Source: a phage
Length of the DNA: 64,000 bases
NCBI GenBank assembly: GCA_009015555.1
Contig: GCA_009015555.1_3613.1
Reading direction: 5' to 3' (one strand)
Shown here: in pieces, positions 1,718 through 12,522 of the stretch
How positions within the stretch are numbered: the stretch's first letter is position 1
How the letters are laid out: each line of letters opens with the position of its first letter
Notes under the pieces: generated by a model
The model's database searches: none
Told to the model about the DNA's origin: nothing
What the model saw: only the letters and a program-made list of their open reading frames with translations
Position numbers and translations under genes: made by a program

Positions 1718-2764
1718 TTATTTAGCAAAATTGCTCAGGTTGTACCCACCAACTGCAACATGGCCCGGGATTAGCTGGCGATGCTGGATAAATCCCTTGA
1801 AATTGCCCGACCAGAAGTTTCCTTCGCGATCGACGTGCGTGATCCCTTTCTCCCAAGAGGATGGGCACCATGCCGCATTCAGCAACTGGCTCTCTGGGTA
1901 CTCACAATCATCAACCGTCTCTTCAATTTCACGACCCTGGTGTTCGAATGGAGAGGCATGTACCTTCTTCCCGGCAACCAGACGGGTGTAGATGTCCAGA
2001 GCCTTGTCCTTGGTGCTGTCCAGACGGCGATAGCTCACCTGACCACAACAAGAGGCAGAGATGCGGAGCGCCTCTTCTTCTGTCAGCATTACCGGGCGGT
2101 CATTTTCATCCAGAACGCAATAGCCTTCGAAGATGTGTGCGTCACCCTCCGGCCCGAAACCGTACACGTGGTCAACATACGGGGTGTGCCATACGCCCGC
2201 CGGGAGCCACTCCGGCTCGGAGTTATCCATCGCCTCCTTCATGAGGTTAGCCAGAACCTCGATCGTTGGGTCTGCATCAGCATCGACACGAAGCCACAGG
2301 AAGTTTTCCATTTCCGTTGTGGTCATGACCGTCTTCATCATCTGGAACGGTTCGATCAGACGGTTAGCGATCTGCTTGTGGAATTTGGCCTCTTCAAAAG
2401 CCAGTGCCACTTCGCAGGCGCGATCAGCCGCCTCGGCCCATGCGTCGCGCCCAGTCATTCCCTGCTCGTACTGCGGCAGGTAAACCAACGCATCATGCTC
2501 AACACCCTTGTCCTGCATACCCGGCTGGTTGGAGCCGAAGCGGACTGGCATTGCCATGTTTTCACGAATCAGCTTCACCATCGTCTTGATCGGTACAGCG
2601 CGAGATGACATCGCGTTACGGCTGAACAGTCGGTGAGTCATGAACTCACTGTGGATGATGCGAGGGTAAGTCAATTCAAAAGTCGTGATACGACCACTGC
2701 GCTGCCCCACAGAATCGGCGATGATCTGAACTTCGATATTGCCACGACTAAATACCTGACCCAT
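1718..2764 (-). CDS. thyX: Flavin-dependent thymidylate synthase ThyX
   Basis: ThyX signature RHR-x7-S present as FMTHRLFSRNAMSSRA; AAGGAG RBS before ATG at 2764. Confidence 0.85.
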   Translation of the reverse strand: MGQVFSRGNIEVQIIADSVGQRSGRITTFELTYPRIIHSEFMTHRLFSRNAMSSRAVPIKTMVKLIRENMAMPVRFGSNQPGMQDKGVEHDALVYLPQYEQGMTGRDAWAEAADRACEVALAFEEAKFHKQIANRLIEPFQMMKTVMTTTEMENFLWLRVDADADPTIEVLANLMKEAMDNSEPEWLPAGVWHTPYVDHVYGFGPEGDAHIFEGYCVLDENDRPVMLTEEEALRISASCCGQVSYRRLDSTKDKALDIYTRLVAGKKVHASPFEHQGREIEETVDDCEYPESQLLNAAWCPSSWEKGITHVDREGNFWSGNFKGFIQHRQLIPGHVAVGGYNLSNFAK

Positions 2765-2778
2765 AAAATCTCCTTTTA

Positions 2779-2982
2779 TTACTTCAACTTACGAATTTTG
2801 TAAGGAACAACAACATCATGCCTGACGGCAAGATACAAGTCAAGCATCTCCTTGCACATATCCTGCGTCACCCTGAAAGAAGTGAGCAGGTCTCCCTGCT
2901 CCGTTCTTACCTCAATATGCTCCCCGTATCGGACAACATATCGACCTTTTCCGCAACGCATTACAGGTTTTCCAGCAACCAA
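2779..2982 (-). CDS. hypothetical protein (67 aa)
   Basis: Small ORF between thyX and nucleotidase gene. Confidence 0.3.
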   Translation of the reverse strand: MVAGKPVMRCGKGRYVVRYGEHIEVRTEQGDLLTSFRVTQDMCKEMLDLYLAVRHDVVVPYKIRKLK

Positions 2983-3572
2983 TCAGCGATTTCTTTCCAG
3001 TCCGCTGAAGTTAAGTCGTAATTGATGCGTGGCTCAACATCCTGACTGAAAGGCGTGTCGAACTTGATCTTAATCACGTCGTCCGGGAATTGATTCAGGA
3101 ACTGGTTCCGATCGTCAATGATTACCCCTCCAGCGACGCCCGCTTTAACCTTTGTGGCATAAAAACCGCTGCCGTCTGTCCCGTTGTCGAGATCAAGGAA
3201 CGGACAATGACGCTTCAGGAATCGTACCTTGCTGCTGAAGTGCCCCTTCTTGCAGTAAGATACGAAACGAATCGGGTGCCCGGCCTCGTGCAAACGACGA
3301 ATTGCATCCACTGCCCCGGCAATCGGCGTCATCTTGTCGTACAGATGAGGATCTTCCCAAAACTCATACGGCTCAATCGCCTCTTTGCAACGAGTCGGGA
3401 AGTATTTGGAGAGGTTGTAATTGAACAACCCCTTTTCCTCATAATCCTTGTCCATCAAATCAACGTCCGCAGGGATTTGATAGACACTTTCCATCCAGTA
3501 AAGCCAAGGCCACCCTGAATCAACGAACGTCAGATCTACATCTACCAGGATCGGGGTCTTAGTGAATGACAT
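2961..3572 (-). CDS. HAD-family 5'(3')-deoxyribonucleotidase-like protein
   Basis: N-terminal VDVDLTF (DxDxT HAD motif I) when started at MSFTKTPILVDVDL; AAGGGAG RBS before ATG at 3572. Confidence 0.65.
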   Translation of the reverse strand: MSFTKTPILVDVDLTFVDSGWPWLYWMESVYQIPADVDLMDKDYEEKGLFNYNLSKYFPTRCKEAIEPYEFWEDPHLYDKMTPIAGAVDAIRRLHEAGHPIRFVSYCKKGHFSSKVRFLKRHCPFLDLDNGTDGSGFYATKVKAGVAGGVIIDDRNQFLNQFPDDVIKIKFDTPFSQDVEPRINYDLTSADWKEIADWLLENL

Positions 3573-4218
3573 ACAGGTCGCTCCCTTTACAGTCTTGCAC
3601 AAAATCACAAATCTTACGGACCGTGCCGTTCAGATCGCCTTCTTCGTTCAGGATGTCAGTTTCATACATCCGAAGATGTTCAGGAAACTCTTTCGCATAG
3701 ATATATCGGCGAGAATCCCCATCGAAATTGTACTCCGTGCCATCTTTTTTCAGACGGTGGATTCGGACAAGGAAATAGTTGTCCGGGCCAACCACATTCA
3801 CAACCGGGATCGACTCCTCTAAGAAGCCCCCGTCGCTGACCACAACTACCAGTTGCACGTCTGCCGGGGTTTCATCCTTCAGCTTTTGCAACTTGGCGGC
3901 AAATGCCTTACCAAACACATCATTCCCAAATGTGGGCTTCATGATGTTCTCGGAGCAGTGGATCATCCAGTCACGAGGGCTGACGTTTACGCCGTTGATC
4001 TGGAGATACGGGCACGGCTTCTCTTTGTACTCACGCTCATACAGAGCGAACCACAGCTTACGGCTCAGGCCGGATGCCCGGATAGCGATATCGAACAGAA
4101 GTTCCTTGAACTCCATGTGGACGACTTCAAACCCCGGGGTGTTGATATAGCTGTGGAGACCTTCGCACAGTGCATCTTTTCCCGCGCCCGCCGGGGCATT
4201 CAAATTAATCAGAATCAT
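3559..4218 (-). CDS. Deoxynucleoside monophosphate kinase (P-loop)
   Basis: MILINLNAPAGAGKD Walker A at N-terminus; start overlaps upstream stop as TAATG (translational coupling). Confidence 0.72.
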   Translation of the reverse strand: MILINLNAPAGAGKDALCEGLHSYINTPGFEVVHMEFKELLFDIAIRASGLSRKLWFALYEREYKEKPCPYLQINGVNVSPRDWMIHCSENIMKPTFGNDVFGKAFAAKLQKLKDETPADVQLVVVVSDGGFLEESIPVVNVVGPDNYFLVRIHRLKKDGTEYNFDGDSRRYIYAKEFPEHLRMYETDILNEEGDLNGTVRKICDFVQDCKGSDLYVIH

Positions 4219-4529
4219 TAGTGCTCCCACTCCTCTCTGTACCATTTTGGCATAGGTGCCAAATAACCATTCACACGCTCAAGTTCGTTAAGGATCTTCT
4301 CTGCCGAACTTAATTTTGTAAAGCGGCGGAGGGTCTTCCACCCCTTGTAATGAACCGGGAGTTCAAAACACTCATAAGAGCCTTCGCAATACCTGAACTC
4401 TTGAACCCGATACTTAAAGAAATAAGCTCTCGGGTCGTACTGGATTCGATATTTGAACTGATCGCCATTATCCCGATGCGCCTGCTTTTTGTCAAGGGCC
4501 TTTTTCATTTCTTGGGAGATGAACATCAT
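4218..4529 (-). CDS. hypothetical protein (103 aa)
   Basis: ORF with coupled stop/start to downstream kinase gene. Confidence 0.5.
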   Translation of the reverse strand: MMFISQEMKKALDKKQAHRDNGDQFKYRIQYDPRAYFFKYRVQEFRYCEGSYECFELPVHYKGWKTLRRFTKLSSAEKILNELERVNGYLAPMPKWYREEWEH

Positions 4530-4546
4530 TATCCTCCTGTTTCAAA

Positions 4547-4572
4547 AAGAAAAACCGCCCCGAAGGGCGGCT
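4547..4572 (-). terminator. Rho-independent terminator hairpin (CCGCCC-TTCG-GGGCGG family) with T-run on minus strand
   Basis: Minus-strand reading ccaagccgcccttcggggcggtttttcttttt directly after stop of 4577..5659 gene. Confidence 0.6.
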
Positions 4573-4576
4573 TGGG

Positions 4577-5659
4577 TTACAGAATGTTCGCCAGCGTTTT
4601 CTTCATCGCTGCCTTCTCACGAACGTTCTGGCGGTCACGGGCACAAGACCCGCATTCCTGACAACGGTACACCTTAAATTTGGACAGGAAGGTGTGGGCA
4701 GATTTGCCTTTTTCTTCCACCAAGTCGTCGGAACCGCAGCGTACACATCGCATCACAGACTGATCCGGGTGGAACAGGGCAATGTTAGGGTGCTTACGCA
4801 TAAACGGACGAACGGTCAGGTACAGTTCTTCCAATGTCGGGATATCCCCGATGTTGTACTCTTCCATTTCGTCGAATGCCGTAGGATCACCTTCCACACA
4901 GCGACGCCACAGACCGAATCCTTCGTGAGACAACTTACGGCTGTCCAGTTCGAAGTAGTTACACGCCGCTTCCAGTGCATTGGAAGGCAGAGAGAACGAC
5001 TCCTTCAGTGCCGCCAGTGTGTCGATCGTGATATATGGGCTTGGCGGTTGCATACCGTAATATGCGAAACGCTGGTTGGCCCAACCACGGTCGAAACGGG
5101 CGTTGTGTGCAATGAAGATATCACACTCGTCAAGGACTTGCCAGAGATCCTGAATCAGTTTTTTATCCGACTGATGATCCCGTTTGAACTCTTCCGGGTA
5201 GTCGGTCAGTTTACGACTGAAGATGGACGGGTTGTGCAGCCACTTCCCGGCGAACGTCAGCATGTACGGCTCTTGAATAACCTGCTTCGGCGCGATGAAT
5301 TGCTTGAAGCGACCAAACGAATAGGCGATGCTCGGAGAGGTCTCGACATCACCAAGGAACACTTTGGCACCCGGGTTATTTTCCTTCACCTTTTCGATGA
5401 AGGTTTTCTGGATCTCTGCCAGCGTTTTACCACCATTGACTTCCTGCTGCATAAAATCAGCGTACTCATCTGGTGTTGGGATACTGTCAATCAATTGTTG
5501 GACAGTTTCCAGATTACGTGCTTCCAGTTCACGCTTCAGCATGTTGCGTACAGTTGACTCTTGAGATTCCTTGCCCAGTTGACGGGCTACCTCGCGCTGG
5601 GACAACCCACCCTTCATCAGAGCCATAACCTGTTCAACAGTAAAAGTCACATTAGCCAA
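4577..5659 (-). CDS. DEDDy-type 3'-5' exonuclease with N-terminal HTH-like region and C-terminal Cys4 ribbon
   Basis: Exo I DVET, Exo II HNARFD, Exo III YNIGD motifs in order; C-terminal CVRCG...CQECG. Confidence 0.68.
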   Translation of the reverse strand: MANVTFTVEQVMALMKGGLSQREVARQLGKESQESTVRNMLKRELEARNLETVQQLIDSIPTPDEYADFMQQEVNGGKTLAEIQKTFIEKVKENNPGAKVFLGDVETSPSIAYSFGRFKQFIAPKQVIQEPYMLTFAGKWLHNPSIFSRKLTDYPEEFKRDHQSDKKLIQDLWQVLDECDIFIAHNARFDRGWANQRFAYYGMQPPSPYITIDTLAALKESFSLPSNALEAACNYFELDSRKLSHEGFGLWRRCVEGDPTAFDEMEEYNIGDIPTLEELYLTVRPFMRKHPNIALFHPDQSVMRCVRCGSDDLVEEKGKSAHTFLSKFKVYRCQECGSCARDRQNVREKAAMKKTLANIL

Positions 5660-5673
5660 AATTAATCTCCCGA

Positions 5674-5937
5674 TTACTTACAAAATTCGATAATGTCTAC
5701 CACGGCGAAGTCACGAACATCGTCTTTATCGACATCGTGCGCCTTGATGAACCACTGAGCGCCTTTATGGTACTCACTTTCCCCGTACCAGAACATTGGG
5801 GCACCCTTGATGGTTCGATAACCGCATTCACCTCTCCAGTTACGGTAGAAGAACCGAATGTTCGGGGCATCCAACCCCGCATACAGACTTCGATCGATCT
5901 TACTCATAAAGATAGTCTTCCTCCAATTTCCGGACAA
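5674..5937 (-). CDS. hypothetical protein (87 aa)
   Basis: ORF only. Confidence 0.4.
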   Translation of the reverse strand: MSGNWRKTIFMSKIDRSLYAGLDAPNIRFFYRNWRGECGYRTIKGAPMFWYGESEYHKGAQWFIKAHDVDKDDVRDFAVVDIIEFCK

Positions 5938-6469
5938 ACTCAGTGACGTAGATGGTGATCATCACGCCCTTGTCCAGGTTCTCGTCAATAACGATACCGA
6001 AGTTCAGGTAGGCGTTACGGGCGATAGTTTCCTTTGTCCACCTCTTGAGTGACTTCTTCAAGTCGGCGACAATCTCTCCGTGGAACTTATGGTGGAGATA
6101 GTCCCTTTCAAGATAGTCTGCCAGTCTACGCAGAGTTTCACTCATTGTCAACCCTGTTTTCCCTTCCATGTGCTTAGACCACAACTTCTGGACTCCGCCC
6201 TCGAAAAGATTAAGAGTTGACCCGATGACCCCACGGCATTTTCCGTCGTAATGGTCATGGTCCAAACATGGGTCCGCCATCGGCTCCCGCAGGATAGCAC
6301 AAAGACCACCCTGCTCCAAAAGGAGTTGATCCCGGTAGGCCGCAATACTCTTCGACCCAGAGACCCACTTATCCTTGCTCAAAGGTACACGAATCGGCGT
6401 TGTAGCCTTCACTTTAGCAGTGAAGCTGGGCTTCCTCGATCGCCTTCTTCTCCCTGTCCGTATTGCCAC
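5900..6469 (-). CDS. Recombination endonuclease VII-like (HNH-type) protein; start uncertain
   Basis: CAIL...DHDH...CRGV...N motif arrangement resembles T4 endonuclease VII zinc/catalytic core from memory. Confidence 0.62.
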   Translation of the reverse strand: MAIRTGRRRRSRKPSFTAKVKATTPIRVPLSKDKWVSGSKSIAAYRDQLLLEQGGLCAILREPMADPCLDHDHYDGKCRGVIGSTLNLFEGGVQKLWSKHMEGKTGLTMSETLRRLADYLERDYLHHKFHGEIVADLKKSLKRWTKETIARNAYLNFGIVIDENLDKGVMITIYVTEFVRKLEEDYLYE

Positions 6470-7058
6470 TAATACCCTCCATCGTCAGAGCGAAAAGGAA
6501 CTCCTCCCGGGTCGGGTTTTTGAAGTCCTCAAAATATCCCAGCATGGTCCGGCGGAACAGCGTAACAGGAAAGTCAAACTTATCCGACAGTGATCCGACA
6601 TTTGTACCGACGCCTGTACTGGTCAGGGCAATATCTGAACCCAGCCCGTTCCTGATCCTCTCATCGTTTTGCGTTAAGAGGAACATAGCCATGCCCGGTA
6701 TGTAATCTGATCTTTTGCAACGAGACATCACCTCTGCCAAGTTTTCAGGATACTCCATCCTCTCAAACCCCCGCCCGGTGACGAGGACCTCATCATAGAT
6801 GAGGCCCCTTGTCTTCTCTGCCCAAGACCATTGATTAGTGCAGTAAAAGTTGATCAGGAAATCAACATTCAGCACCTTGTCACGAACAATGATCTCGTCG
6901 AAGTGTTTCCTGTCTACAGACTCGTATGTTTTATCGCGGGAAAGAGTCCCCTGCAAAGAAAACCTCCAGTCCTGCTTATCACTCCGGTCGTAACACAGGA
7001 TAATCTTACGTGTTGCGTTCTTTAAGATTGAATCCCAGTCTTTCTCCGTTTCTCTCAA
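6414..7058 (-). CDS. hypothetical protein (214 aa)
   Basis: Long ORF in operon context; no motif recognised. Confidence 0.45.
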   Translation of the reverse strand: MRETEKDWDSILKNATRKIILCYDRSDKQDWRFSLQGTLSRDKTYESVDRKHFDEIIVRDKVLNVDFLINFYCTNQWSWAEKTRGLIYDEVLVTGRGFERMEYPENLAEVMSRCKRSDYIPGMAMFLLTQNDERIRNGLGSDIALTSTGVGTNVGSLSDKFDFPVTLFRRTMLGYFEDFKNPTREEFLFALTMEGISGNTDREKKAIEEAQLHC

Positions 7059-7635
7059 GGAAACACCCTCCGATCAGGATGGCGTCGGCGAGGTCGGTAG
7101 CCCCGCCATTCTTTCCAGACTTATTATAGCCCTTCAGGAATCCCGGATGCAGGATCTCGCAAACACGCATCATTTCGTTTTTGCCCATCTTCACCTTGAC
7201 CATCTTCGTCCCGGCATCGTTCATGGTTTCCTGTTCTTCACCCGGTAACCACTTACGTGCCCAAGACTTAACCGATGTCGGCGCGATGACGTGAATTTGG
7301 TCCATAGTATACCCGTCACGAAGAAGAGTCAACTGGATGCTGTAAAATAATCCAGCCAGGTCCCTTGTGGCATCGCCAACCGACCCCAGGCTCAACGATT
7401 CAAGCACGATGTGATCCACATCGAACGAATCACACACCCCGGCAATCTGCCCGGTGATGTAGGCAATCTGTTCAGCAGTGTGCTCGAAGTACATGCACCA
7501 ACCTTTGGAGTCCTTGGCCTTCTTCTCTGACCCCGTGGTGTGGAGTACCTCCTTAAAGATCGGAATCCCGTCTTCCAACACCACATAGGCACATGAAGAC
7601 AAACTTTGGTCAATCGTCAATAAGCGCATCTTCAT
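7006..7635 (-). CDS. RuvC-like Holliday junction resolvase
   Basis: N-terminal MRLLTIDQSLSS...YVVLEDG and C-terminal DLADAILIG resemble RuvC catalytic Asp motifs. Confidence 0.58.
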   Translation of the reverse strand: MKMRLLTIDQSLSSCAYVVLEDGIPIFKEVLHTTGSEKKAKDSKGWCMYFEHTAEQIAYITGQIAGVCDSFDVDHIVLESLSLGSVGDATRDLAGLFYSIQLTLLRDGYTMDQIHVIAPTSVKSWARKWLPGEEQETMNDAGTKMVKVKMGKNEMMRVCEILHPGFLKGYNKSGKNGGATDLADAILIGGCFLERNGERLGFNLKERNT

Positions 7636-7945
7636 CCTTAGCAATAAAATGGTACTCGTTCATCAAAAACACATAGTTCTTGATGACCTTTTGAACTTCG
7701 TCGTACACCGTGAACATGGCGTACTTGTCCCCCGGGTAAGGAACACCCACCGGGTATACTTCGCACAGACTACGCACCCGTGGGTCGTACCACTGGATTC
7801 GCCAAGGTTCTTCCAGCATGGTCCACGGCTCCTCGATGAGATAGAAGGTCTTTGAAGCCCCGGGCACGAATGCCGCCCGGAGTTCATCTGCCTTAATCAT
7901 CTCCTCGACGCGAACATCCAAACCGCCAGCGTCGTTTTGACTCAT
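7610..7945 (-). CDS. hypothetical protein (111 aa)
   Basis: ORF only. Confidence 0.45.
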   Translation of the reverse strand: MSQNDAGGLDVRVEEMIKADELRAAFVPGASKTFYLIEEPWTMLEEPWRIQWYDPRVRSLCEVYPVGVPYPGDKYAMFTVYDEVQKVIKNYVFLMNEYHFIAKDEDALIDD

Positions 7946-9057
7946 TACACAACCCCCACTTTACGAAGAACATGTCCCAGAGTGGTCTTATCATCCGGGG
8001 TGCGCTTCATGTACACCGCTTGGAAGATAACAGAGGCCCACTGCCCGGCGCTGAACTTGCGATCCACGCCCATGTGATCAGTGAATGCCACCCCGTCAGG
8101 GAACCACTCCTTGTACTGATTTACGATCGCTTCCCACATGGCCTTCTCATCCTGACACGGAGAGATGACTTGGAAGGCAGAGGTCTCGCCAAACTTGATC
8201 TTGTCGAAGTTTTGGTATGGCTTCACGTTATCCGATTGATCACCGAACAACATTTGGTAACCAAAGAACTTCTGGCCCCAGCCTTTTACCTTACCCTTCT
8301 CCATCCAGATCTCCCCCATCGACTCATCAATAAGCCACGGGAGCGGATGCTTCCAGTCGCGCTCTGTTGAGTCACGCATGGTATTGAAGATAAGGCCAGG
8401 GCACTGGACTTGATCTTTGTCGAATGATGCCACGATATAGTTGAACTTGCCAGTCTTTTTGTAATGCAACCAGCCCTCATACTGTTTCATGGTCAGATAA
8501 TCATCCGCCTCGATCCCGTCAATCACGATCGCGCCGTATTTCCGTTGAACATATTCACGGGTATCCGACAGCAACAACGGGCGAACAGTGTCCTCACGGT
8601 TGCCTTTGTAGATTTCCGGCGTCGGCAGCGCCAACCGGAAGTTTCCGGTCCCACCCAAGACACCGAGTCCATTTGTCGTACCCATGTGTTCAAGGATCGC
8701 GTTGATCTTAATCTTCAGCAAGTGCAGGCAGTTTTCCACAGGTTCAGGGTACTGCTTGTCCGTAATTGTGAAATCATCACGGGTCCAAGGAGTAAACTCC
8801 CGGCCCGCTGCCGCCATCTTCGCCTCCATGTTGGTGTTCTGGTCCTTCAGCCACCCGCCGACTACTGTTTTCTGTCGGCCCCAAAACTCCGTCTTGTTCT
8901 TGAACTCCATCTGACGACCGGATTTGTTGTGGGTTGCGATAATGGTACGCTTTTCCGCGCCCGCCGCCGCAACATAACACGTCTGATCCAAATCAAGAAC
9001 AATAGTAACATCATCCGTAACGATATCCTTCAGGTTTTCTACAACGGGATAACCCAT
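7945..9057 (-). CDS. Flap endonuclease / 5'-3' exonuclease (RNase H-like, FEN family)
   Basis: GIEADDYL, FDKDQVQCPG and MLFGDQSDN motifs typical of phage 5'-3' exonucleases. Confidence 0.72.
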   Translation of the reverse strand: MGYPVVENLKDIVTDDVTIVLDLDQTCYVAAAGAEKRTIIATHNKSGRQMEFKNKTEFWGRQKTVVGGWLKDQNTNMEAKMAAAGREFTPWTRDDFTITDKQYPEPVENCLHLLKIKINAILEHMGTTNGLGVLGGTGNFRLALPTPEIYKGNREDTVRPLLLSDTREYVQRKYGAIVIDGIEADDYLTMKQYEGWLHYKKTGKFNYIVASFDKDQVQCPGLIFNTMRDSTERDWKHPLPWLIDESMGEIWMEKGKVKGWGQKFFGYQMLFGDQSDNVKPYQNFDKIKFGETSAFQVISPCQDEKAMWEAIVNQYKEWFPDGVAFTDHMGVDRKFSAGQWASVIFQAVYMKRTPDDKTTLGHVLRKVGVV

Positions 9058-9069
9058 TACTCACTCCTC

Positions 9070-9576
9070 TTAAAACGCATCACCAAAGTCCTCTTCTTCC
9101 TTGACGGGGCGCTTGAACTTAAAGTCCGGCCCCATGTACTCACTCAGGTAGTCGATATTAAGCGACCACTCCTGCTGGCTGCGCTGCCGCCATGTGGCAA
9201 ACTCACTTTTCAGATAAGCAATGGCCTGATCACGAGTGATCCCATTAACCTTCATGAATTGCTTGATCGCCCTTTCGAGTTTCCCGTTCTTCTCGGCGAG
9301 GCCCGGATGGTGGAACTCATGGCACGGCGGACACAGGCTCATGAGGCCGACCAGTTTAACCTCTCCATTTTCGAATGTCCAGCTTTCATGACACTCAACC
9401 GGATGTTTTCTTCCGTTTCCACCCTGCCCACCACAGATCTGGCAGGTGTAGTTGTGCTCGGCATAGCACTTCCGGCGCACCTTATCCCACCCGGTCTGGG
9501 TGAGGTAAGAACGGAGGTTGTTGTCCCACGCCGTTTGTGGGATCAGGCAGATTTTATGCTTAATCTTTGAAGTCAT
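9070..9576 (-). CDS. Cys/His-rich putative zinc-binding protein
   Basis: CQICGG...HPVECHE...CPPCHEFHH cluster; start taken at MTSKIKHK. Confidence 0.42.
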   Translation of the reverse strand: MTSKIKHKICLIPQTAWDNNLRSYLTQTGWDKVRRKCYAEHNYTCQICGGQGGNGRKHPVECHESWTFENGEVKLVGLMSLCPPCHEFHHPGLAEKNGKLERAIKQFMKVNGITRDQAIAYLKSEFATWRQRSQQEWSLNIDYLSEYMGPDFKFKRPVKEEEDFGDAF

Positions 9577-10111
9577 TACGCACCCTCTCATACCCGCCGC
9601 AGCGGTCAATCAGGGCGTCCGTCGCCCGGTCCCACGCCTTGCCCAAGAGGTTCATCCCCAACCAGTTGGCCTCGTCGTCAATCATCGGGTGGTCTTGGCT
9701 CAGGCCGACACCCCAGATACGATCCCGGTCAGAAGCCTCAACAAAACTCCGGCCCGCAAGTCGGTGCTGGATCGCCTCGCAGCGGAGGCCGAGGTCAAAC
9801 ACCAGACGGCAGTAACAGACATTCTCGACGATCTGCTCTCGGGACTTCTCCCACAGTTCGTTGTTGAACCCCTTTACCTTACGACCAAGCATCTTGGCTT
9901 CCTGCGGGTGGAATACCTCTGTGATCTGCCGGGCGATATTGTGATCGGCAAACAGCATGGCCTTTTCGTACATCATCATGTGCTCCCCGGTGTAGAACTT
10001 AACACCTTCCTGCTCATGTCGCGGCAGAGCGAAAGCCCTGTCGTTTCGGTAATGATTACTGAACATGTCCTTCCACGAATAGAAGAACACGTGCTTGTCG
10101 GTCACCCTCAT
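9560..10111 (-). CDS. NADAR (YbiA-like, DUF1768) domain protein
   Basis: GEHMMMYEKAMLF...IWGVGL pattern characteristic of NADAR/YbiA family from memory. Confidence 0.65.
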   Translation of the reverse strand: MRVTDKHVFFYSWKDMFSNHYRNDRAFALPRHEQEGVKFYTGEHMMMYEKAMLFADHNIARQITEVFHPQEAKMLGRKVKGFNNELWEKSREQIVENVCYCRLVFDLGLRCEAIQHRLAGRSFVEASDRDRIWGVGLSQDHPMIDDEANWLGMNLLGKAWDRATDALIDRCGGYERVRNDFKD

Positions 10112-10320
10112 ACGCAGAACTCCCCTGCCAGTCGGTTGTACTTTTCCCGGAAGAACTCAAGGCGGACCTCCAGGTCGTCGATATGGTCCGCAGCCTGAAT
10201 CATCTGGTCATACGGATCTCCGTCGCAGTTCTCCTGACTCGCAAGGTCCCGCAGGACCGTCTGAATCGGGAACATGCCGTTTTTAATTGGATGGATCACT
10301 TTCATCGGCGGCTTCCCCAC
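10108..10320 (-). CDS. hypothetical protein (70 aa)
   Basis: ORF, tandem with neighbours. Confidence 0.4.
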   Translation of the reverse strand: MGKPPMKVIHPIKNGMFPIQTVLRDLASQENCDGDPYDQMIQAADHIDDLEVRLEFFREKYNRLAGEFCV

Positions 10321-10517
10321 TCGGTGGAGATCAGGAAGGCCATAGCCACGGCAAATACCAACTCAACCATCAATGTGACATTGATCACTGTCTCCAGTTC
10401 ACGACCGTAAATACCGTTCAGGTTGAAAGTCGTTAACCCCACAATCGCCGGGGTGGCGAAAAGGATCAGTACGCCGATAACAACATAGCCGATCAAGAAT
10501 TTAACCAAACTGTTCAT
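10302..10517 (-). CDS. small membrane protein
   Basis: Hydrophobic stretch LIGYVVIGVLILFATPAIVGL; start trimmed to MNSLVKF to remove overlap. Confidence 0.4.
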   Translation of the reverse strand: MNSLVKFLIGYVVIGVLILFATPAIVGLTTFNLNGIYGRELETVINVTLMVELVFAVAMAFLISTEWGSRR

Positions 10518-10852
10518 AGTCCATCTCCAAAAATCAGGGACGCCGGGCAACTGATCCGGCAGTCTTTTGCTAACGGGAAGTCCTGCAACCACTGCGCCAG
10601 TAGGATGCTCGAACTGTTTTTGTAATCACCGGAGTTGATGTGGATGTATCCGATCTCCCAAGGGAACAGAGGGCTGTTCACGATGTGAGTCTCCACAATG
10701 TCCGTCAACTGACCATAAGTGATCAAGTTCTCTGCCTTCGATGGCAGGTACAAGCCGAAGCGAAGACCCGCCGGGCCAGTCGGTTCCATCTTACGGAACC
10801 CTACCGCCTTGGACATGTCTACCGCAAACACCTCAATAGTTACAGTTTCCAT
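10514..10852 (-). CDS. hypothetical protein (112 aa)
   Basis: ORF only. Confidence 0.45.
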   Translation of the reverse strand: METVTIEVFAVDMSKAVGFRKMEPTGPAGLRFGLYLPSKAENLITYGQLTDIVETHIVNSPLFPWEIGYIHINSGDYKNSSSILLAQWLQDFPLAKDCRISCPASLIFGDGL

Positions 10853-11229
10853 CAGTAAAGATCCTCGCTAAACAGTGTATCGTATGGCGCACCTTTTTTA
10901 CGCACCGTGTTGATCTGTCCTGCGTGAGTGGCAATGACCAGGGCATCTTGTCGGTTGTGATACTCTCCCCATTGGTCGATAAAACCCTGCTCTTCACCCG
11001 CTACAAAACGAGTAGAAATTTTATCTTCCAAGAGGTCAAGAACCTCAGCCATATCTTTGGAATAGTGACGAGACCCCGGAACTACCACAAAACCACCAGT
11101 CTTCAGTTCGAAGCGGTTGGCGGCACAAACAATCCGTCGCTGCAATTTGCGACCGTCCCACCAGTCGGCGATCTTATAACAAATTTCCGGGAGACCTTCT
11201 TTTACGGTATCTTCCATCAGTTCCTCCAA
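10852..11229 (-). CDS. hypothetical protein (125 aa)
   Basis: ORF only. Confidence 0.45.
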   Translation of the reverse strand: MEELMEDTVKEGLPEICYKIADWWDGRKLQRRIVCAANRFELKTGGFVVVPGSRHYSKDMAEVLDLLEDKISTRFVAGEEQGFIDQWGEYHNRQDALVIATHAGQINTVRKKGAPYDTLFSEDLY

Positions 11230-11429
11230 TATACGTTTTTGTCTTTTTTAATCATGCGGCTTACCTCTTTTGCCGACAAACGGTCATAACTTGCTCCGTT
11301 TTCCCGGTATGCGCCGCATGGGACCCATTCAGGGATAGAAAAGCTATAGTGCTGGTAGAAGATAGTACCTTTGGCAATTTCAATCTCCAGCCAAGGGAGA
11401 TGAACCTCGCGGATTTTGAAATATGTCAT
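11217..11429 (-). CDS. hypothetical protein (70 aa)
   Basis: ORF only. Confidence 0.38.
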   Translation of the reverse strand: MTYFKIREVHLPWLEIEIAKGTIFYQHYSFSIPEWVPCGAYRENGASYDRLSAKEVSRMIKKDKNVYWRN

Positions 11430-11599
11430 TGTCTGTTCACCAGGCTCGTCAGGATCGCAGAACCGATATATTCCAGCACATCATTGGTCGTGCTCATCTC
11501 CGGCAGTTTGATTGCCTTGCTTTCTTTATCTATTCCTGCCTGAACAGAGGGGTTTTTGAGAAGGGCCGCGATCTGCTCTTTGTTGAACTTTACTAACAT
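11426..11599 (-). CDS. hypothetical protein (~57 aa)
   Basis: ORF, start trimmed to MLVKFNKEQ. Confidence 0.33.
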   Translation of the reverse strand: MLVKFNKEQIAALLKNPSVQAGIDKESKAIKLPEMSTTNDVLEYIGSAILTSLVNRQ

Positions 11600-11609
11600 G
11601 ATGGTCTCC

Positions 11610-11819
11610 TTAGTGCTTAACGTATTTTGAAGGGCAAGAACCGCCACCTTCGTGAGTTATCGCCACGGTGGTGCGCCCGTTGCTATAAATGCACACCTTG
11701 TCACTACCGTCGGTGTAGTAATCCTCCAGGTCCAGCGTTTGAGCCGCATGTGCCGCAGAGAAATTTAACACACCTGTAATCAAAACTCCCAGCATAAACC
11801 CTAAGAATACTTCTTTCAT
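11610..11819 (-). CDS. small protein with signal-peptide-like N-terminus
   Basis: MKEVFLGFMLGVLITGVLNFSAAHA hydrophobic leader. Confidence 0.4.
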   Translation of the reverse strand: MKEVFLGFMLGVLITGVLNFSAAHAAQTLDLEDYYTDGSDKVCIYSNGRTTVAITHEGGGSCPSKYVKH

Positions 11820-12022
11820 TTCGTCACCCCTTTTGCGATATTTTCGATTCGTTGGCGAAGGATCTCTTCGCCCGGTATTGGCCCGGCCTTAATAAATTCA
11901 CGGGCCTCTGGAAATTCAGTCTCCGGAAGTGCATTCAGGATCTGTTTCAGAAAACACAAAGCCTGCATACGGTGCCCATCGAACTGAAGCGCAAGGTCTC
12001 GCCATTTCATTTCTGTACTCAC
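11816..12022 (-). CDS. hypothetical protein (68 aa)
   Basis: ORF only. Confidence 0.4.
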   Translation of the reverse strand: MSTEMKWRDLALQFDGHRMQALCFLKQILNALPETEFPEAREFIKAGPIPGEEILRQRIENIAKGVTK

Positions 12023-12522
12023 TTTGCCCCCATCGCTTTCGATATGTCGTCCAAATACTGAGTCTGTGTCTTGTCATCGTCCGGCAGGCGGAGGATGTCG
12101 GCACCCCAGCGGTTGGCGTTCATCATGATGTGCAGCGGACCGCGCCGCCATTCGCCGTACCATGCACTAAGTTTGTCGTGCTCTTTGTGCATACTGTCCA
12201 ACTGGTCAATAAGATAATACGCATGATTCAGGAACTTTGCAACCAATTTCACAATATTTTCGTACTTCGGTGGAAACGGGTTGTACTCGAACATCTTATC
12301 CAGAATAACCATCTCGCGGACCATCTCACGAACGGTGCCGATCGGGTTGGCTACCGGGGCGTTCTCCCAGTTGAAGCGGTAAAGAGACTCACAGATTTCC
12401 TTGCAGCGCTTCTCCTTCTTCTCTTGGCTCTTTGGAGCTTGGAAGAAGATCTCTGCTGGAGGGTAGATGGATACGTTGTTGATCCACTTTTCAATGAAGG
12501 CCAGGTTGATACTGTTGCTCAT
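12019..12522 (-). CDS. hypothetical protein (167 aa)
   Basis: ORF only. Confidence 0.5.
   Translation of the reverse strand: MSNSINLAFIEKWINNVSIYPPAEIFFQAPKSQEKKEKRCKEICESLYRFNWENAPVANPIGTVREMVREMVILDKMFEYNPFPPKYENIVKLVAKFLNHAYYLIDQLDSMHKEHDKLSAWYGEWRRGPLHIMMNANRWGADILRLPDDDKTQTQYLDDISKAMGAK

Follow-up and report, generated by a model that had tools for sequence, protein, structure and literature searches.

A block of nuclease genes occupies positions 4577-9057 of a 64,000-nucleotide stretch of phage DNA (contig GCA_009015555.1_3613.1 of GenBank assembly GCA_009015555.1), the whole of which is called the window here. The block encodes two unrelated junction nucleases, one of the RuvC fold and one related to T4 endonuclease VII (Endo VII), in company with a flap endonuclease (FEN)-like 5' nuclease and a DEDD-family 3'-5' exonuclease. 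We consider it probable that the block processes intermediates of DNA replication and recombination, and that the two junction nucleases have distinct roles in this. This reading draws on folds, conserved active-site residues, gene order and purifying selection. That these phages retain two unrelated junction nucleases is a real and old feature maintained by selection, and on that account distinct roles are favoured over redundancy; the pair is most likely not redundant.

A preliminary description of the segment, made from its sequence, had named these four nucleases, and family, profile and fold matches bear out all four identities. It had also remarked that two types of resolvase in one cluster look redundant, an appearance that proved real and conserved across the phage group, and it had looked to missing catalytic residues in a resolvase-like protein as what would refute its reading. 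Both proteins keep these residues, as D12/E82/D184/D187 in the RuvC-like protein and D70/H71/H73/R79/N87/E90 in the Endo VII-like protein. The block is wider than four nucleases: an adjoining HNH endonuclease gene is a fifth, and three small open reading frames (ORFs) of unassigned function are interspersed (Table 1). Judged by their sequences, all five nucleases look catalytically competent.

Over its full length the segment shares 98.1% identity with Cronobacter phage CR3 (Certrevirus, Vequintavirinae), and it is 93-97% identical to CR8, PBES 02 and relatives among Enterobacter, Klebsiella and Pectobacterium phages. The source phage is a CR3-type Certrevirus, within the rV5-like Vequintavirinae. 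The sequence and its genes are already public, an Endo VII, an "exonuclease" and a "DNA polymerase exonuclease subunit" being annotated in CR3. A literature search for studies of this cluster or of its dual resolvases found none, the only related mention being of a RuvC-like resolvase encoded in a Septuagintavirus genome (PMC12942863). We regard the finding as ordinary overall and its discovery value as low; its uses are for the annotation of these genes and for the question of how phages divide resolvase work.

Predicted structure and active site of the RuvC-like protein

The RuvC-like protein matches PHROG 159, 'RuvC-like Holliday junction resolvase', with E=7.5e-36. No Pfam match was obtained at E<=0.1 (PF02075 included) and no NCBIfam match; one distant homologue, P0053, carries PF02075. 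A single-sequence search of the PDB found no match, and the best E reached by the family profile against PDB sequences was only ~1-2. Structure prediction and fold search were therefore used. The AlphaFold2 model of the RuvC-like protein (pLDDT 93, pTM 0.89) has its strands and helices in the order found in RuvC, with an equivalent of helix B at residues 91-109. When the PDB was searched with this model using Foldseek, the top 12 matches were all RuvC structures, from D. radiodurans, T. thermophilus, E. coli and P. aeruginosa, with E=4e-7 to 3e-5 and TM-scores of 0.68-0.74 normalised to the length of the target (RuvC). Lower in the list come phage bIL67 RuvC, yeast Ydc2 and the fowlpox resolvase, and the sole RNase H-superfamily exonuclease among the top 50 matches is RNase T, which appears from rank 26. 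Matches among the viral models of BFVD are annotated as RuvC or Holliday junction resolvases.

The protein shares the RNase H-like fold and the order of secondary structure elements with bacterial and bIL67 RuvC (PDB 1hjr, 4ld0, 7xhj, 4ktw). The four-carboxylate site of the E. coli enzyme (D7, E66, D138 and D141) corresponds to D12, E82, D184 and D187, and the active site of bIL67 RuvC is formed by D8/E71/D145/D149 (PMC3864405). These four residues of the window protein, and with them Lys126 (K126) of an 'SVK' motif, likewise a point of likeness to RuvC, are invariant across 22 homologues down to 35% identity to the window protein. Identity in sequence to bacterial and bIL67 RuvC is only 10-16%. 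Unlike RuvC, the window protein is ~50 residues longer and has an inserted beta-hairpin and loop, placed by the model between helix C and the last helix. The true start of the gene is likely the ATG at 7629, giving 207 residues; the start calls of the longest ORF and of CR3 gp228 differ, and the shorter form is the one favoured by the alignment. No RuvA or RuvB partner appears in the CR3 annotation over coordinates 28,000-149,273, the part that was read, the first 28 kb lying outside it. The CR3 counterpart, gp228, is labelled "hypothetical", several relatives annotate the gene as RuvC-like, and several records call it 'RNaseH'. For annotation, the result identifies gp228 as a RuvC-fold nuclease with an intact predicted active site.

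Of the RuvC-like gene copies seen, only that of Raoultella phage Ro1 (L024, 10007-10629) is disrupted, being divided between two ORFs that overlap and are in different frames. The break is either a frameshift, possibly making a pseudogene, or a sequencing error.

An Endo VII homologue without the zinc cysteines

The Endo VII-like protein scores 28.0 bits against Pfam PF02945 (Endonuclease_7), for which the gathering cut-off is 23.6, and matches PHROG 423 with E=1e-33. A phmmer comparison aligns it with the T4 Endo VII structure 1e7d (E=2e-6) over T4 residues 19-146 of 157, the C-terminal (dimerisation) region included. In an alignment of 11 relatives with T4 gp49, residues D70, H71, H73, R79, N87 and E90 are invariant and correspond to T4 D40, H41, H43, R54, N62 and E65, respectively, so that the DHDH motif and the equivalents of R54, N62 and E65 are all kept. 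D40 and N62 of T4 Endo VII bind the catalytic metal, and mutagenesis shows the catalytic residues to be required for activity (PMC6083498).

The main difference from T4 Endo VII (gp49; PDB 1e7d, 1en7, 2qnc) concerns zinc. Among Endo VII-motif proteins the CX2-4C and CX2C pairs that flank the DHDH motif, and that bind zinc in T4, are highly conserved, and the T4 mutants C23S and C61S are inactive and unable to bind DNA (PMC6083498). The window protein and its relatives lack these pairs. Its alignment with the T4 protein places Gly at C58 and Leu at C61 and puts C26 within a four-residue deletion; the position of C23 holds Cys in most relatives but Asp in those of the 4MG type. The loss extends beyond this phage. 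Of the 150 cluster representatives (P0191-P0339) that ranked best in an exhaustive profile search, 143 keep the DHxH motif; 86 of these are without both Cys pairs, 44 retain both and 13 retain a single pair, proportions that are biased by a query profile built mainly from the zinc-less clade. Since the form lacking both pairs is so common, we read it as a large and stable subfamily of the Endo VII family and not as decay; this branch is apparently undescribed, and it raises the question of how an Endo VII can function when the zinc site is missing.

The window protein also differs from its T4 counterpart in a basic N-terminal extension of ~35 residues, conserved among relatives. The extra N-terminal residues are conserved as protein, and for this reason the longer start (189 residues) is favoured; the CR3 annotation of gp226 (170 residues) probably begins the gene too late, and its correction is a further gain for annotation. 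Finally, the Endo VII-like gene coexists here with a RuvC-like gene. T4 is not known to carry a RuvC-like gene beside Endo VII.

The 5' nuclease and the 3'-5' exonuclease

PHROG 107 identifies the FEN-like protein with E=1e-67. The protein itself has no Pfam match (PF02739/PF01367) and no NCBIfam match, and a single-sequence PDB search was also empty; either or both of these Pfam domains are found in homologues at 26-44% identity. A profile of 32 FEN-like sequences finds the plastid 5'-3' exonuclease 9l56 (E=6e-9), the Taq 5' nuclease (E=2e-5) and T5 D15 (E=0.013). For the AlphaFold2 model (pLDDT 95), the best Foldseek matches are E. coli ExoIX 3zda (E=1e-6), 9l55 and T5 FEN (E=5e-5), with modest TM-scores of 0.40-0.57. 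The invariant residues are D22, R141, Y150, K151, R154, E183, D185, D213, D215, D273 and D276, and the conserved motifs are FR...YKxNR, EADD, DKD and GDxSDN. When compared with the T5 FEN reference residues D26, D68, E128, D130, D153, D155, D201 and D204 with Y82/K83/R86, the equivalents of seven metal-binding carboxylates and of the YK..R motif prove invariant.

In family profile, predicted fold and conserved motifs the protein resembles T5 D15, E. coli ExoIX (Xni) and the 5' nuclease domain of Pol I. It differs from them in its DxD first motif, in a Gly at the D68/D67 site that is taken up below, and in an extra segment of ~70-100 residues after the first acidic motif (residues ~25-130), well predicted as strands and helices.

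The DEDD protein matches PHROG 403 with E=8e-114, scores 30.3 bits against Pfam RNase_T (PF00929; cut-off 24) and also matches RNase_H_2 (PF13482; E=5e-4). Its match in the PDB, to the epsilon subunit of DNA polymerase III, is weak (E=0.004). Across 18 homologues from related loci the Exo I (DxE, D104/E106), Exo II (Nx3D, N186/D190) and Exo III (Yx3D, Y268/D272) motifs are invariant, as in DnaQ-like and PolB-exonuclease-like DEDDy enzymes. In contrast to those enzymes the window protein stands alone and has both a conserved helix-turn-helix-like N-terminal segment and a zinc-ribbon-like CxxC...CxxC at its C-terminus, the latter kept in this lineage and absent from part of the family. Its start gives 360 residues, against 349 in CR3 gp224, and conservation of the extra N-terminal residues as protein in relatives favours the longer form.

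The preliminary description had called this enzyme a proofreading-type exonuclease. That holds for its fold, which is DEDDy, but a role as proofreading subunit is doubtful. The CR3 DNA polymerase gp060 (L004, 18007-20643, outside the window) is a family A enzyme of 878 residues with ~540 residues before the polymerase domain, and its N-terminus, "FVGDAEANGLLEE", is collinear with the Exo I motif of T7 gp5, a weak match (E=0.14). The family A polymerase appears, on this weak evidence, to keep its own Exo I, and a proofreading-subunit role for the DEDD protein is therefore unlikely. The label 'DNA polymerase exonuclease subunit' carried by CR3 gp224 is for the same reason unproven, which annotators of these phages may wish to note.

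Gene order and selection

The genes of the block are conserved under purifying selection, and chance is not at issue: in pairwise comparisons with four relatives, the ratio of non-synonymous to synonymous substitution rates (dN/dS) is 0.03-0.21 for every gene. At >=80% coverage, tblastn searches found 267 phage records with the RuvC-like protein and 265 with the Endo VII-like protein, the host-genus profiles being similar, the two numbers being separate counts and not a record-by-record overlap. In many rV5-like records the RuvC-like match touches features annotated as Endo VII and as exodeoxyribonuclease, which points to adjacency.

A search of IMG/VR with the RuvC-like profile gave 21 loci, 20 of them with enough flanking sequence to be informative. 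The Endo VII-like gene lies immediately downstream of the RuvC-like gene in 18 of the 20, down to ~40% identity, and the usual order is HNH-FEN-RuvC-EndoVII-small ORF-DEDD-dNMP kinase-NT5C, dNMP standing for deoxynucleoside monophosphate. The two exceptions are a re-ordered locus with a 40%-identity match (L023) and the most distant match, at 30% (L025). The RuvC and Endo VII genes are adjacent also in three more distant metagenome contigs (L026, L028 and L031). On two short, distant contigs the FEN-like gene stands directly beside a zinc-less Endo VII-like gene, without an intervening RuvC-like gene (L030, 3-1123; L033, 3-867), and on a further short contig (L035) an Endo VII-like gene has neither a FEN-like nor a RuvC-like neighbour. 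A strict linkage of zinc-less Endo VII with the RuvC-like gene accordingly holds in the closer clade (L026, L028, L031) and fails in L030, L033 and L035. The RuvC-like gene may have entered an older FEN-EndoVII pair at a later time, or the L030 and L033 lineages may have lost it.

Roles of the two junction nucleases

The preliminary description suggested that the phage may rely heavily on recombination-dependent replication. We infer as follows what these enzymes act on, when they act and how the two junction nucleases share the work. The FEN-family 5' nuclease would remove flaps and primers and resect 5' ends. The Endo VII-like protein would probably clear branches of all types from concatemers before packaging, by analogy with T4 gp49, and the RuvC-like protein would resolve true Holliday junctions arising from recombination-dependent replication or from repair. 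Our proposal of a broad debrancher beside a Holliday junction specialist follows the analogy with T4 gp49 and with bacterial and phage RuvC only.

In a comparison of jumbo phages, the distribution of the two resolvase types was described as "a nearly complementary pattern" (PMC7824862), and because RuvC-like and Endo VII-like enzymes nearly exclude each other there, carrying both is somewhat unusual. Against that pattern, two junction nucleases of unrelated families are neighbours in ~265 sequenced rV5-like phages.

Several observations count against the roles proposed here. In the RuvC-like protein, the position of the wedge residue F69 of E. coli RuvC appears to be taken by Ser85, an invariant residue three after E82, though the alignment to D. 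radiodurans RuvC on which this rests is weak. In the FEN-like protein the position of T5 D68 and Taq D67 is a Gly ('VLGGTGNFR'), for which D24, the near-invariant extra Asp of the DxD first motif, may compensate. Given the absence of the zinc cysteines, and the inactivity and failure to bind DNA of T4 C23S and C61S, the Endo VII-like protein may bind substrates differently from gp49. As to the timing of expression, a scan for promoters and terminators found no enrichment over shuffled controls, the total number of terminator-like sites in 2500-12500 included. Lastly, the block lies directly upstream of genes for dNMP kinase, NT5C, thymidylate synthase and ribonucleotide reductase (RNR), a setting that fits breakdown of host DNA and salvage of its nucleotides equally well.

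This last point leads to an alternative that is possible, if on the unlikely side, namely that one endonuclease, with the FEN-like and DEDDy exonucleases, degrades the host chromosome to dNMPs which the adjacent genes recycle, while the second junction nuclease debranches DNA before packaging. T7 offers a functional analogy: gp3 (endonuclease I) has a dual role and, with gp6 (a 5'-3' exonuclease), degrades the host chromosome, and genes 3 and 6 likewise pair a junction endonuclease with a FEN-family exonuclease amid replication and nucleotide genes. The window differs from T7 in having two junction nucleases, of the RuvC and Endo VII families and not of that of T7 endonuclease I; no homology to T7 gp3 came to light, though no search was aimed at it. 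The dNMP kinase gene (PHROG 139, E=6e-44) follows the block on the same strand, then the gene for the 5'-nucleotidase NT5C (Pfam, E=2e-8), with thymidylate synthase and RNR subunits, as annotated in CR3, also following on that strand, and the linkage recurs in relatives. A strong terminator, however, parts the nuclease block from these genes, and a salvage role is compatible with the processing of replication and recombination intermediates rather than exclusive of it.

We think it rather unlikely that one of the resolvase-like proteins has ceased to be a junction resolvase, with the Endo VII-like protein acting as a nicking, mismatch or sequence-directed nuclease, or the RuvC-fold protein as an RNase H-like or flap nuclease. 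The preliminary description had suggested that one resolvase may have diverged, and part of this stands: the Endo VII-like protein is without both of the Cys pairs called highly conserved in PMC6083498, the homing enzyme F-CphI shows that the same motif can serve a non-resolvase role (PMC6083498), and carriage of both types is atypical in view of their near exclusion in jumbo phages (PMC7824862). The 'RNaseH' label of several RuvC-like records points the same way. Set against this, the Endo VII-like protein aligns with T4 residues 19-146, C-terminal region included, and keeps all of the DHHRN residues and E65, and the zinc-less form, at 86 of 143 DHxH-keeping representatives, is a large and stable subfamily. 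The model of the other protein matches RuvC first, with RNase T only from rank 26.

It is improbable, in our estimate, that the adjacent RuvC-like and zinc-less Endo VII-like proteins form an obligate two-resolvase system, whether by strict division of labour, with Holliday junctions left to one enzyme and general branches or mismatches to the other, or by physical partnership; if true, such a system would break with the near mutual exclusion of the two types in other large phages. Highly improbable is true redundancy as insurance, in which two unrelated resolvases would guard against a host inhibitor or defence aimed at one of them: the phage group does keep intact copies of both genes together, but strong long-term purifying selection and stable adjacency are to be expected of separate essential functions sooner than of a spare copy, and no such inhibitor or defence system was identified in this analysis. 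We reject decay or pseudogenisation of one resolvase on the grounds of the invariant catalytic residues and the low dN/dS.

Layout of the block and its other genes

Every gene in this part of the window is encoded by the minus strand, with CR3 counterparts gp224-gp231; position 4577 is the stop of the DEDD gene and 9057 the start of the FEN-like gene. In the direction of transcription, from 9609 to 4577, the order is HNH, FEN-like, 111-residue ORF, RuvC-like, 180-residue-type ORF, Endo VII-like, small ORF and DEDD, and adjoining genes overlap or sit 12-15 nucleotides apart. A hairpin resembling an intrinsic terminator, with a 9-bp stem (6 G-C pairs), a 4-nucleotide loop and a T-rich tail, follows the last gene (4573-4552) and is the best terminator-like site within 2500-12500. 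As the genes overlap or abut and this strong terminator lies 3' of the last of them, the block is probably a single transcription unit.

Table 1. Genes of the nuclease block and the hairpin that follows it, with window coordinates
Feature	Coordinates	Strand	Basis and remarks
HNH endonuclease	9070..9609	-	PHROG 5200 E=2e-75; CR3 annotation starts at 9570
FEN / 5'-3' exonuclease-family nuclease, 370 residues	7945..9057	-	PHROG 107, family profile, fold
111-residue ORF, CR3 gp229	7610..7945	-	PHROG 13101, function not assigned
RuvC-fold junction endonuclease (predicted)	7006..7644	-	PHROG 159, AlphaFold2 model and Foldseek
ORF, CR3 gp227	6414..7058	-	PHROG 12410, function not assigned; in CR3 180 residues, 6414-6956
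T4 Endo VII-like nuclease, 189 residues	5900..6469	-	PF02945, PHROG 423, 1e7d match
Small WYL-like protein, CR3 gp225	5674..5937	-	PHROG 3715 E=1.5e-25; in CR3 77 residues, 5674-5907
DEDDy 3'-5' exonuclease, 360 residues	4577..5659	-	PHROG 403, RNase_T, Exo motifs
Intrinsic-terminator-like hairpin	4552..4573	-	directly 3' of the DEDD stop codon

The HNH protein has the conserved motifs CxxC...HPVECHE...CPxCH. Its gene adjoins the FEN-like gene in 16 related IMG/VR loci and has a dN/dS of 0.03-0.06, and this constant position and low ratio suggest a fixed function, unlike that of a mobile homing endonuclease.

None of the three small ORFs has an NCBIfam match or a Pfam match that passes the cut-off. 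The 111-residue ORF can be recognised mainly in Certrevirus-like relatives; beyond these it has a single weak match, at 24% identity, and its dN/dS is 0.10-0.18. No other gene of the block evolves as fast as the gp227-type ORF (dN/dS up to 0.21), which is confined to Certrevirus-like relatives. The gene of the small protein (77-87 residues) separates those of the Endo VII-like and DEDD proteins in 18 related IMG/VR loci and in the metagenome locus L026; the protein matches Pfam WYL with E=0.021, below the cut-off, and its conserved pattern, F.Y.N[WY][KR]G...R...P..W[YF]G...H...QW....D..K...R.[FY]A..DI, is like that of a WYL domain standing alone. The protein may assist the nucleases by binding nucleic acid. 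In Pectobacterium phage phiTE (L006, 11956-12498) the small WYL-like ORF is parted from the DEDD gene by an inserted extra gene for a 180-residue HNH homing endonuclease, 'EndZ'; DU_PP_I, DU_PP_IV, P7_Pc and CB7 have the same insertion, and the window phage is without it.

Directly upstream of the block, and overlapping the HNH ORF, is a gene for a NADAR-domain protein (9560-10111, minus strand; Pfam E=1.4e-32). NADAR domains are linked to the removal of ADP-ribose from DNA, and for this reason the gene could be an anti-defence gene.

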